From: Trichodelitschia bisporula
Lineage: Eukaryota
Assembly (NCBI GenBank): GCA_010356995.1
Contig: ML996693.1
Coordinates: forward strand, 1,054,001 to 1,118,000
DNA: 64,000 bases
Direction: 5' to 3'
Shown: one piece after another, positions 22,236 through 27,485 of the stretch
Numbering within the stretch: position 1 is the first letter of the stretch
Layout of the letters: every line of letters begins with the position of its first letter
The notes under the pieces: generated by a model
The model's database searches: none
What the model was told of the DNA's origin: nothing
The model's input: the letters and a program-made list of their open reading frames with translations, nothing else
Made by a program: the position numbers and the translations under genes

Positions 22236-23207
22236 TTAAGGGTCAGGAAACCGGTCAACCTCGTCTGCGCCCAGGCATCCAGGCTTCGGCCTGGACATTG
22301 GGGCCCCGGCAGGACCAAGGTACCAGCGCACCGACACTACCTCCTTCCGTTGTTCATCATTGACAGATAGCATATGGGAAAAATGATCCCGCCCTCTGCG
22401 GTCGATAAAATCTTCGACGTACTCCTCAATATCATCGTCGCGAGGCTCCTCGTCGCGCAAAATAAAATCAGGAGGACCAACGATAAACCAACGGAAGCGG
22501 TAGGGCGTGACGTTAGCCTTCTCCTCAAGGCCGAGCTTAAAGTTCTCTAGACAAGCGTGGACCTGTACAAAGTACAACTCATCGATCTCCTTCTGGCAAC
22601 CTGGGCAGTTGCACTTGCGACTCTGCACGTCCGTGACCTCGATGTCAACTTGCGCCCGGTCGTCGCGGGTAACTAGGATGCGAAGAAGATACTCGAACGG
22701 AACAGGATCGTCGACCGGAACAAGCCCCTTCCAGGAGTGCGTTGGGATCTCCCAGTGGACATGGATGTAGCGGAAATTCAGAAGGGCCTCTACTTCGAAG
22801 ACGTCGCTGGCAGGGTTTGAGGAGGCATTGAGGTAGGTGACGTATTTTGCCTCTTTATAGATCAAGTCCCTGGCCTCCGCCTCTACTTGATGGTATACCC
22901 AGAGACACCCGAAGTTGTCAGTCTGGTCCCAGGGCCGGGAAGGGTGGAACTTGGGCTCTACCTTCTTCTTGCGTTTGTTTGTTATCCTGGTAAAGCCGGG
23001 GGAGGTGGGTGGCGCTTTATCCACGATCTCTTTTCCGCGTAGCTCTTTCGTAATTTCGCCATTCGGATAGAACGTCTCACGATAAACCATCCATCGCAGC
23101 TCGAGGGGAAGGGCGAGGAAGGGGAAAATATCCTTAGAACGCGGTCCAGCCGCGTCAAGGTTTCGGTCGTTGGGCGTCGGGCCCGATTCTTCAAATCCGT
23201 TAGCCAT
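22236..23207 (-). CDS. Hypothetical protein with an N-terminal F-box-like/2EXR-like motif
   Basis: 323-aa ORF containing FPFLALPLELRWMVYRETF, typical of fungal F-box-like orphan proteins; natural protein composition. Confidence 0.6.
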   Translation of the reverse strand: MANGFEESGPTPNDRNLDAAGPRSKDIFPFLALPLELRWMVYRETFYPNGEITKELRGKEIVDKAPPTSPGFTRITNKRKKKVEPKFHPSRPWDQTDNFGCLWVYHQVEAEARDLIYKEAKYVTYLNASSNPASDVFEVEALLNFRYIHVHWEIPTHSWKGLVPVDDPVPFEYLLRILVTRDDRAQVDIEVTDVQSRKCNCPGCQKEIDELYFVQVHACLENFKLGLEEKANVTPYRFRWFIVGPPDFILRDEEPRDDDIEEYVEDFIDRRGRDHFSHMLSVNDEQRKEVVSVRWYLGPAGAPMSRPKPGCLGADEVDRFPDP

Positions 23208-23325
23208 TTCGAAGACTGTATCAGAAAGTAGTCTGGGGGTGGACGGGAAGACGGATAGAGTGTGTCCAGCCTATCATATAGGCATATATCGATTGAATGT
23301 GATTGTAGTAACAGGAGTGTGATAG

Positions 23326-23410: not shown

Positions 23411-23734
23411 AATCTCACTTTGTGATATTCAACTGTGTTAGCTTGCTGTGGCCGAATAACGGTAAATGCTTGGGCATATTGAGTGTCGACTGCAGATAAA
23501 AGATCTCCCCGAGCAACGCCCCACGCCGGCCGCCGCCTCGGGTTCACCCTTGAATCCAGTCTTCCCCCTGATGACCTCGACCTGCCGGAACGGCTCAGAT
23601 GAAGAAGCATCTATTGCTCAACCCGATCTCACACAATGCAGCCCCTTTCTCCCCATAACGCCATTCAGATCAAATATCACCGCCACCGCTCCGCGTTACA
23701 CACCCGAAACCTACATACCCCCCCATCACCCAAC

Positions 23735-24638
23735 CTAAAGCAAACTCCGCTCCACAGCCCTCAGTTCCCGCCTAACCTGCTCCCTCAACTCCCTCGCCAA
23801 CCCCACCCCCTCCGCCTCGTCCATATCCTCCCTCTGCCCGCGCCCAAACATGCGCCAACTGTGTGAAAGCGGCGCCGCTGTCTCCGGCCTAGGGATGATG
23901 TGGAAGTGCACGTGGGGCACGACTTGGGCGGCGCGCTCGCCTGGGGTGTTTAGTATGTAACCTGGGATGCGGAGATTGTGGTTGTAGGGCATACCGTTGT
24001 TTTGCACGATGTTGTAGTCGCTTACGTTGGTGACTTTTGTGACGGCGCGGGCGAGTATCGGGAGCCAGAAACCTGGGGGTGTTAGTGGGGAGGGGAATTG
24101 GGGAGGGGGGGGGGGTATACCGATGTCCCGGCCTTCGCGTGAGGTTATGTCGGTTAGCTTGGGGCGGTGGGCGCGGGTGCAGACTGTGGCGTCAGTACCC
24201 GTTACATGAACTCTCAGGTAATGAGGGCAACGCCAAACATACCCTACACACGTCAGCTCTCATCCCACAACCACTGCCCCCCAATCTCCCACGCAGTAAG
24301 GGTGCACGTACAAGCAAGTGCCCACGCGTCATAGGCATGATATCCAAGAACGCAACGACATTATGGCCCGATAGAACGAGGAAGCACTCTGGGTCCACAG
24401 CTGTTGAATCTGTGACCTCGGGCACGTCGGTAATGGATGGTTCGGGGACGACAGCGGTGTCGGGCGTGGACACATCAGGCCCGGCCTGGAGGTCGTGGAA
24501 CGGCGCGGCGTACGCTGAGGCGATGTTGCAGAAGGGGCAGGATTGGGGATATTGTGCGTCTAGACCCTGTGTGCCGTTGTCCAGTGCTTCGGCTTCGGCG
24601 GCGGCGAGAGCGCCGGGGAAGGAGGGCTCGTTGGGCAT
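23735..24638 (-). CDS. HIT (histidine triad) family nucleotide hydrolase; exons 24638-24312, 24243 (1 nt), 24183-24121, 24072-23995, 23940-23735
   Basis: CPFCNI, VVAFLDIMPMTRGHLLVCTRAH, YNIVQNNGERAAQVVPHVHFHIIPR (HxHxH triad). Four introns with GT donors and YAG acceptors. Confidence 0.9.
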
Positions 24639-25186
24639 GTTGCTCGCTGGGTGGTCGCGTGGAGGTTCAAGGGTTGGGAATTGAGTGGAGGAGCTATAGG
24701 GACGATTGGGCTGTAGGATTAGGGTTCTAGGTTCGCGAAGGGATTGCACGAGGTATGGCCGTTTGACAGGCCGCCGGGACTGTTTGCGCTGGCGGGTGAC
24801 GTCGCGGTTGAGGCTGTTGAGGTTGTCGGCTTGAGGGCGCTAGTCGGGCGCGAGCAGGGGGCAGTGTGGGGTAGTGTGGCGTTTCGTGTAGGTTGGTGGG
24901 GTTGCCGACAACAGGGAATGGGGTGCGGGGAAGACGGGTGAGCAAGGAGTAGGAAAGCGGAACTAAGAATGAGATAGGGACGGGTGAAGTCGAATTGGTG
25001 GTGAATGTTCCGGTCAGGCAACGTGGGCCGAGAGGTACGTCACAGTGATCGACTAGTTCTAGGAAGGCGCACGAGATGTGTTCCTGCATATGTATCTGAA
25101 TCGGGAAATCTATCCAACGCCTGCAATGCTTCACGGATGACAAGAGCAATATCAGTCCAACCCCCACTCAAACACCGTCCGTCCGA

Positions 25187-27485
25187 TCAAGACCCAAAAC
25201 CCAGTCCCCGGACCTCCTCATCATCCTTCAACGCCAAAACAATCTCATCATCCCCAACCCCCAACCTCACCCTCCTCGCCCTCTCCCCCCTCCTCGCCTC
25301 AACCCCCACAATCCCCGCCTCCGCCAGCCCCGTCAGCGCCGCCTCCATCCCCAGCACCCGCGGCGCCGCAGTCGGCGCCTTCTTAGTACGCCGCGGCGTC
25401 GCTCCCACCGCAGGCGCCTTCTCCGTCCCCTCCCCAAGTAGAATCTCATGCACCCCCGCAAGCTGCGACATGATACCCAGATTCCGCGCCTCATCCAACA
25501 CATCCCCAACCAGCGCCTCGCCGATCCCCGTCCTCCGCACCCGCGCCAGCAACGCCGCGAGGAACACCTTCGCCGCAAGCGGCAGCGCGCGCAGGCACTG
25601 CTGCAGCGGCGAGGACGTGGCTTCCGCGATCGCGGCCTTGATTGTGGCGATCGTGACAATGCCCTCGCGCGCGGGGCGCTTCAGCACGAGCTCGGGCTTG
25701 TTGCGGCCCGATTTACTCGGTGTGCCGGGGGCATCGGGGCCAGCGGCTGCGTTGGCCATGGCTTCCGCCTCAGCGAGCTCGACAGCGCGGCGGCAGATGT
25801 CGAGCGCGCGCCGCGCGTCGCCCGACACAGCAGCCACCTTACGGGAGGCGAACTGCACGGCGTCCGGGTGGACGATGTTGCCCGGCACATTGGCTAAGCG
25901 GGACTCGATGATTTGCATGAGTTGGGCGTGGGTGTAGCCCTTGAAGGTGATGCGGTGGAGGCCGAGACGGGAGGAGATTTTGTTGCTCAGCGTGCGCTCG
26001 GGGAGATCCATTGTGTTGGCGACGGCGAGCACGATCAGCCGGCTGTGCCGCAGACCCGGCCAGTTGAAGAAGTTGTACATGACGGATTGGTTTTTGGTTA
26101 CGAGTTGGTCGAGCTCGTCCATTAGGACGACGCAGGGGACTCGGCGCGGGCTCGGGGCGGAGAATTCGCGCTCGAGGAGGTCGAGGGCGTGGCTCGGGGA
26201 GACGCGGTCACCGCGGAGGGCTTCCCAGAGGAGGGAGTAGGATTGGTGGGGGTCGGTGACTTTCATGCCGTTGATTTCGACGAATATGAAGTCGTCGAGC
26301 TCTTCGGCGAGCACGGAGGCGTTCAGTTGAGCGACTACTTCGCGTACCGTCGCTGTTTTTCCTGTCCCGGGTGTGCCTGCGATGTAGATGCAAGAGCCGG
26401 TGCCATCGGTGATGGCCTTCTCCAGGTGTGAGTATACTTCGGCGAATTCGTCTTCGCGGCAGGGGAGCGAGGCTGGGACGGACGAGACGTGGAGCTGGTT
26501 GCGGGCGATCTGGTGCGGTGATGCGAGGACCTCCGGGGCCAGCACGCGCGTACCCAGAGGCGTGAATTCGAGCGGCTTCTTGACGACGATACGCTTGTGC
26601 GTAGGTGTTAGAAACTTGCGCGGGCTGAGATCCTTGAGGTCCTTCCGCCGGGAGGGTGTGACCGCATCTATCTTCCGGCGCTTCTTGGGCGTCTTGGGCT
26701 CGCCATCTTCATCGTCTTGGACGACAAAGTCGGTAACGCCGGCTTTGGCTGGCCCACGGCCTTTGCGGGTTGCCTTTGTTTGGCTCTTTACCAGGTCAAT
26801 CAAGTCGGGGATGTTGTCAAAGCCTTGGTAGACGTCTTCCCAGATGAACTCGTCGGTGTAGGTGGCCGTCCGCGTGTTGCAACCCCGCCGACAGACGAAA
26901 TATTTACCGTAGTGCTGCGAGTTCCGGGGAACGACGCCCTTGGGATACTTCTTCGCAAAATATTCCGGTGACACAACGTAAGCCTTCCCGTTGATGGTAG
27001 TCAGGGGGTTGTCGTCCCATGATGGCGAGATGTACAGTTCGTTCTGGACAATGTTAGACGGACAGAGAAAGTGGCATTGAACTTACGGGCAATGCATCCA
27101 TCCGTCTCTTCTGTTTATTGCGAATCTCGCTGGGTGATGCGAACCACATAAAGTTCGCCAACTTTTCGCCGGACTCCTCATCGTCAAAAAGGTGGCATAT
27201 AAGCCCAACCCATGCTTCGCCACCACTCTCGGCTTTCAGCAGTACCGTGTCTCCCAGCCGGCACTCAAACTTGCCCATCCGCGCGCCAACAGGCTGTTTT
27301 TGAGCATCTCCGGCCTTTCGCTTTTTGCTGGGAGTTTTCTGCTGCACATCGTCATCCTCGGGGTAGATCCACTCCCAAGGAAGATCCTCATCGCCGAGCT
27401 CGTCATCCGAGTCCTCGCGGACTACGGCACCGGTCTTGAGGTATTGCTTAGCCTTCTCGATCTTTGTCTTTTTGCGTCCGGGCAT
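25187..27485 (-). CDS. ORC1: Origin recognition complex subunit 1; intron 27044-27086
   Basis: N-terminal BAH domain (LGDTVLLKAE..WVGLI..FMWF), LHVSSVPASLPCRE, Walker A GTPGTGKT, Walker B VLMDELD, AVANTMDLPER, SGDARRALDICRRA. Confidence 0.96.

Follow-up and report, generated by a model that had tools for sequence, protein, structure and literature searches.

The locus analyzed here raises the question of how a 128-nt gap in a protein-coding gene can be closed in the mRNA without loss of the reading frame. The gap (24311-24184) interrupts a HIT gene on the minus strand of a 64,000-nucleotide stretch of Trichodelitschia bisporula DNA, called the window throughout. The exon upstream of the gap closes with the complete codon CTT (24314-24312; phase 0). 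The exon after the gap lacks one base to be in frame, so that, as the preliminary description of this DNA had stated, the frame is shifted if the whole gap is excised as a single GT-AG intron. Translation of such a product would end early, at a stop after 118 amino acids. That description had proposed that the gap consists of two complete introns separated by an exon of one nucleotide, G24243.

Structure of the HIT gene and of the interrupted region

Read base by base, with cuts marked by slashes, the minus strand gives CTT/GTACGT..(68 nt)..CTGAC..TAG/G/GTATGT..(59 nt)..CTGAC..CAG/TCTGC, and this confirmed, base for base, the two-intron arrangement around G24243 at 24184..24311. AG stands directly before the single base and GT directly after it, and the flanking introns each have a donor, a branch element, and an acceptor of their own. 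Both branch elements read CTGAC. That of intron 1 occupies 24256-24252, its A (24253) being 9 nt away from the acceptor G, and that of intron 2 occupies 24195-24191, with a distance of 8 nt from its A (24192) to the acceptor G. In total, the coding region is made of five pieces on the minus strand of 23735-24638 (Table 1).

Table 1. Features of the HIT gene and its transcript, in window coordinates
Feature	Position	Strand	Description
Transcript contig, extent within the aligned stretch	23549..24900	-	Contig runs on beyond 24900
Coding exon 1	24312..24638	-	ATG 24638-24636; ends ...GGG CAC TTG CTT (GHLL)
Intron 1, 68 nt	24244..24311	-	Donor GTACGT, acceptor TAG; GTACGT...GCTGACGTGTGTAG; absent from transcript contig
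Proposed one-nucleotide exon G	24243..24243	-	First base of codon GTC (Val110); one G at mRNA junction
Intron 2, 59 nt	24184..24242	-	Donor GTATGT (context AGG/GT), acceptor CAG; GTATGT...ACTGACGCCACAG; absent from transcript contig
Coding exon, 63 nt	24121..24183	-	TC TGC ACC CGC GCC CAC = (V)CTRAH; transcript piece 24119-24182, cut ambiguous
Intron 3, 48 nt	24073..24120	-	GTATAC...CTAAC...CAG; transcript joint skips 48
Coding exon, 78 nt	23995..24072	-	Sequence and transcript contig
Intron 4, 54 nt	23941..23994	-	GTATGC...CTAAA...CAG; transcript joint skips 54
Last coding exon	23735..23940	-	Histidine-triad motif HVHFHII; stop codon 23737-23735

Judged from their sequence, introns 1 and 2 are built like the transcript-confirmed introns 3 and 4 of the same gene. 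The distance from the branch A to the acceptor G is 9, 8, 9, and 9 nt in introns 1 to 4, respectively, the element of intron 4 (CTAAA) being one letter off CTRAY. The lengths of 68 and 59 nt are comparable with those of 48 and 54 nt, and one intron of 128 nt would be about twice as long.

Introns 3 and 4 have some peculiarities of their own. The donor of intron 3, GTATAC, is unusual in having no G at position +5 and is followed by a run of 11 C in an intron that is very C-rich over its 48 nt; despite this donor, it is spliced precisely in the transcript contig. Since the lengths of both introns are divisible by three and both are free of stops, the whole C-terminal half forms one 174-aa open frame through them at 23735-24259 (-), and a naive open reading frame call would yield a plausible wrong protein with 34 extra residues. 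The upstream neighbor of the HIT gene, at 25187-27082 (-), encodes an ORC1/Cdc6-type AAA+ protein (Pfam AAA, Cdc6-ORC-like lid, and ORC1 winged-helix domain), and the downstream neighbor is a 344-aa frame at 22236-23270 (-) without a Pfam match.

When the exons are joined with G24243 included, they encode a protein of 224 amino acids that is identical to the deposited "HIT-like protein [Trichodelitschia bisporula]" (P0001), a model that may derive from the same transcript data as those used below, so that the two are not independent. The supposition that predictors miss one-nucleotide exons fails for the product in this case, the deposited protein having the correct sequence already. The protein matches the Pfam HIT family (PF01230) at residues 86-175 with 69.6 bits, above the curated cutoff of 21.5, and carries the HVHFHII motif; a weaker match to DcpS_C was also observed.

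Transcript junction and the ways of producing it

Transcript data were available as contigs from two runs of one sample in one study, of a kind guessed to be RNA. The runs cover 71% of sampled words, and their contigs were aligned to positions 23500-24900. Each run contained one spliced contig (1186 and 1236 nt, with word depths of 667.9 and 266.8, respectively) that had no other letters relative to the window and showed three joints, with skips of 54, 48, and 127 nt, the first two exactly where introns 4 and 3 had been predicted. As the three joints fall at intron borders, the contig represents a spliced transcript; its piece at 24310-24900 matches exon 1 without a mismatch. The 127-nt joint leads from 24182 to 24310, with 2 nt fitting either side, and the coding strand across it reads CTTGTCTGC. 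The mRNA skips 127 of the 128 nt of the gap and keeps one base. The cDNA junction that the preliminary description had predicted, CACTTGCTTGTCTGCACC, was present in the contigs of both runs, with 127 nt skipped and no mismatches. Three records per run were aligned, and only the fully spliced form was seen in these contigs, which drop rare forms; neither a half-spliced nor a G-skipping form appeared among them. Removal of the gap as a single 128-nt GT-AG intron is rejected by the 127-nt joint and by the frameshift.

The contigs also provided information on both ends of the transcript. At 23516-23591, each run has two additional contigs (841-1337 nt) whose match is limited to 43-63 nt of the 3' untranslated end of the HIT gene, with 2-4 other letters; beyond it they are unlike the window, which suggests a short sequence common to other transcripts. 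At the other end, the transcript contig continues upstream of the ATG for 262 nt or more within 24639-24900 (-) and for about 63 nt beyond; no upstream ATG was found by eye in 24639-24900, and the leader, which is long, appears free of upstream open reading frames.

The cDNA alone fits G24311, G24243, or G24184 as the kept base, because intron 1 begins with G and intron 2 ends with G, and the exonic base is a G as well. We enumerated exhaustively the contiguous deletions and the pairs of GT-AG, GC-AG, or AT-AC introns, each of at least 20 nt, that reproduce the cDNA. Three contiguous deletions of 127 nt do so, with the ends GT..CA, TA..AG, and AC..GT, none of which is a known spliceosomal class. 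Exactly one canonical intron pair does so, 24311-24244 with 24242-24184, around G24243. The composite motif CTRAY-N(2-18)-YAG-N-GTRNGT has a single match across both strands of the 64-kb window (128 kb), at the 24243 site, and it arose in 139 of 100,000 dinucleotide-preserving shuffles of the gap interior (0.14%), with both halves at least 45 nt long in 76 of 100,000 and with G as the middle base in 53 of 100,000. The inner splice signals are more than a chance by-product. Overall, we consider it highly likely that two ordinary introns, of 68 and 59 nt, flank a single exonic G24243 between Leu109 and Val110, and we infer that G24243, and not G24311 or G24184, is the base that is kept.

Four other explanations of the junction were weighed. 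One of them, which we regard as very unlikely, is that a single noncanonical intron of 127 nt is removed in one step and that the internal TAG-G-GTATGT is unused; this would require either a 5' cut displaced by one base downstream (TA..AG, 24310-24184) or a 3' cut displaced by one base upstream (GT..CA, 24311-24185). Such an intron would account for the cDNA equally well, and there were no intermediates among the transcript contigs, a type of record that loses rare forms. However, all three contiguous solutions have noncanonical ends, and the CA end would lie a single base away from a perfect CAG. The second step of the U2 spliceosome needs the first and the last base of the intron (G...G), which also argues against this explanation. 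In addition, the single intron would have about twice the length of the other introns of the gene, and the internal set of branch element, acceptor, and donor would be left as a coincidence of the kind seen in 139/100,000 shuffles.

It is highly improbable that the assembly misses one G at a border (CTTG/GTACGT or CAG/GTC), in which case a single canonical 128-nt intron would be removed and there would be no micro-exon. As assembled, the borders read CTTGTACGT and CACAGTCTGC, and an mRNA contig gives no cover of the intron borders on the genomic side, which leaves room for such an error. On the other hand, the exons agree with the transcript contig with 0 other letters, the internal splice-signal set would again be a coincidence, and an intron of 128 nt is out of line with the confirmed introns of 48 and 54 nt.

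The preliminary description had named one junction that would speak against its proposal, formed by a weak GTGCAC donor at 24307 and the CAG acceptor at 24184. The resulting 123-nt intron keeps the frame and gives GHLLVLCTRAH, with the junction CTTGTACTCTGC. This junction differs from that of the transcript contigs, among which it was not seen, and its product differs from the deposited protein, whereas inclusion of the G restores the HIT strand GHLLVCTRAH, as had been proposed. Homologous proteins gave the same answer. The homologue search returned 119 other proteins, 81 of them with the strand, and in every one of the 81 the spacing is that of the 127-nt model, [GA]H-x-x-V-x-x-[RK]-x-H; the residue added by the 123-nt model is needed by none of them, and a single one also fits the longer pattern. 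Against a profile of 23 orthologues, the 127-nt model scored 276.2 bits versus 270.8 bits for the 123-nt model. As the source of the main mRNA, the 123-nt intron is barely credible; it is contradicted as the major form, and a rare minor isoform is compatible with the contig data. There is likewise next to no chance that the junction arose artificially during transcript assembly or when reverse transcriptase switched templates at the 2-nt GT repeat, an explanation favored by the origin of the support in contigs of one sample only, since the exact junction is identical in the contigs of both runs at the depths given above, it restores the frame and the conserved spacing, and an overlap of 2 nt is too short for template switching.

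Orthologous loci and possible origin of the intron pair

One metagenome scan gave 80 loci, most of them of bacterial type and running straight through GHTLVIPK-like strands, and 13 were judged to be fungal-like (L001-L004, L006-L008, L011, L013-L015, L021, and L070). The AG-G-GT arrangement that the preliminary description had suggested looking for in orthologs did not recur in this set, as 0 of the 13 fungal-like metagenome loci have an intron at Val110. For this reason, the intron pair looks lineage specific, or else the relatives that have it may be unsampled. Ten of the 13 loci are free of introns from AFLD to GH-x-L-V-x-x-R and serve as length markers, which agree with the 127-nt model.

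L003 has a phase-1 intron that splits the Gly codon preceding the His of GHLLV, at a distance of 11 nt upstream from the double-intron site. The reading frame of L002 and L004 is lost at this point too, and no downstream exon was found for these two within 330 nt. These three loci, inspected around the AFLDILPM..GHLLV stretch, are Pleosporales-like orthologues, and the positions of neighboring introns are discordant among orthologues. By eye, the L003 intron measures approximately 150-160 nt, with AGGGTGTAAG inside it; as one intron, it keeps the frame, and a micro-exon is unneeded. Five gene calls on environmental contigs (P0002, P0012, P0024, P0025, and P0098) start with a few unrelated residues directly before GHLLV, and an intron ending before GHLLV would explain these starts.

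The sequences of introns 1 and 2 are only weakly alike; 3.7% of 300 shuffles attained their global alignment score, and the splice signals present in both account for part of the likeness. No other copies of either intron were found in the window, where the best other matches were 11-12 nt long with E values of at least 0.15. Thus, the intron comparison and the window search gave no sign of an introner-type or duplication origin. For the Fusarium gene discussed below, Nelson and Syed proposed that the loss of one base was rescued by a cryptic AGGGT (PMC12940212). Insertion of a second intron beside an existing one may be an alternative.

Proposed splicing order and comparison with known systems

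The mechanism that we propose treats introns 1 and 2 as complete and independent U2-type GT-AG introns, each of which would be recognized by intron definition. Filamentous ascomycetes are described as pairing splice sites across introns (PMC5587772), so introns of 68 and 59 nt would each be definable alone. Because TAG/G/GTATGT places the intron 1 acceptor and the intron 2 donor in the same space, simultaneous processing would be impossible; two spliceosomes cannot share one base, and removal must therefore be sequential. The two introns would be removed one after the other, in either order: with intron 1 out first, the remaining TTG/GTATGT would be a good donor, and with intron 2 out first, TGTGTAG/GTC would offer a good acceptor. 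We infer both the sequential splicing and the free order. Such a scheme would be sequential and recursive-like, as was proposed for APC11 (PMC4674806). In the conserved strand GHLLV-x-x-R-x-H, the kept G would open the GTC codon of Val110; a splice from donor 1 straight to acceptor 2 would omit this G and truncate the reading frame.

It is possible, though we think it unlikely, that the one-base exon is not merely tolerated and acts as a kinetic switch and an evolutionary intermediate. If so, excision of all 128 nt would produce the frameshifted mRNA, with its stop after 118 amino acids, as a likely target of decay, and the share of productive mRNA would be set by competition between the inner and the outer pairs of splice sites. 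Loss of either intron would then leave orthologous introns one base apart, which would be a route to 1-nt intron shifts separate from the published route through [D1,2]/[A2,3] stwintrons.

The one-base exon of the HIT gene is a further case of a rare kind that has already been published. The earlier characterization of such exons as very rare holds, with the addition that published examples of this kind include fungi (PMC12940212 and PMC12230235). The cases found among the papers searched were few: Arabidopsis APC11, plant VPS55, Fusarium CYP621A, and 13 in a Coprinopsis annotation. Judged by title or abstract, a full-text literature search on one-nucleotide exons returned no paper on a HIT gene or a Dothideomycete, and none of the papers returned for the species name Trichodelitschia bisporula dealt with splicing. 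One-base exons provide a stress test for models of splice-site pairing, for gene predictors, and for read aligners, and the present gene adds a transcript-supported example from another fungal class. The gene is small and easily assayed, and its short introns suit reporter and lariat experiments. A G exon of this type is inherently invisible to cDNA alignment, and similar cases may hide behind "non-canonical" introns in annotations built from transcripts.

The preliminary description had also related the arrangement to stwintrons. These are defined by an internal intron that interrupts the donor, the branch element, or the acceptor of an external intron, with nothing kept (Fekete et al. 2017, PMC5587772). 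The relation stands as a loose resemblance and fails as a classification, since both introns of the HIT gene are complete, neither interrupts a splice element of the other, and one base is kept. Neither the [D1,2] nor the [A2,3] reading fits, by eye or in the enumeration, where contiguous removal has noncanonical ends. The likeness, as far as the published account of stwintrons goes, is that two U2 introns form one complex intervening region in a Pezizomycotina gene and are removed by intron definition in two consecutive reactions. Stwintrons of the [D1,2]/[A2,3] type are reported to underlie 1-nt intron shifts (PMC5587772), and loss of either HIT-gene intron would leave introns one base apart, as in that scheme. 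Unlike stwintrons, the HIT-gene introns would have no fixed order of removal, and the mRNA retains one base.

Recursive ratchet points are zero-length exons that leave no base in the mRNA and serve very long introns. The HIT-gene site resembles them in that an acceptor is followed at once by a donor and the first splice would regenerate a usable 5' splice site. In contrast to ratchet points, it leaves one coding base between short introns, and with AG-G-GT in place of AG/GT it is not a recursive splice site. Recursive splicing is named in the Discussion of the Arabidopsis APC11 study (PMC4674806).

In that study, substitutions of the retained base established the single-nucleotide exon of APC11 (Guo and Liu 2015, PMC4674806), and 1-nt micro-exons have been described in APC11 and VPS55 across land plants (PMC8831610). 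As in the HIT gene, a 1-nt exon stands between two GT-AG introns, constitutively so in plants, and sequential removal was proposed by the authors, whose scheme for APC11 combines intron definition with recursive-type splicing (PMC4674806). The base of APC11 is an A, which makes the cDNA unambiguous, and the substitutions appear in the mRNA as reported, whereas the base of the HIT gene is a G and is ambiguous in the cDNA. The APC11 and VPS55 introns described for plants are also much longer than those of the HIT gene.

Fungal cases come from both basidiomycetes and ascomycetes. The long-read annotation of Coprinopsis cinerea contains 13 one-nucleotide exons in 13 genes (PMC12230235). It resembles the present case in that 1-nt exons recur in fungal nuclear genes under transcript-guided annotation, and it differs in concerning a basidiomycete and in giving genome-wide counts, apparently without case-by-case dissection. 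The one-nucleotide exon of Fusarium CYP621A has read support and was introduced by its authors as the first example from a fungus (Nelson and Syed 2026, PMC12940212). It belongs to another gene family and to the Sordariomycetes, whereas the HIT gene is from the Dothideomycetes, and its arrangement is reported to be conserved in at least 20 orthologues, compared with 0 of the 13 fungal-like loci for the HIT gene. In the other respects described for CYP621A, the two cases are alike: both are nuclear genes of filamentous ascomycetes with the identical core AG/G/GT, the gap is about twice the usual intron length, and the phases are incompatible unless one base is kept. In both, a conserved protein motif is interrupted, relatives without introns there act as length markers, and the junction is documented by RNA data.
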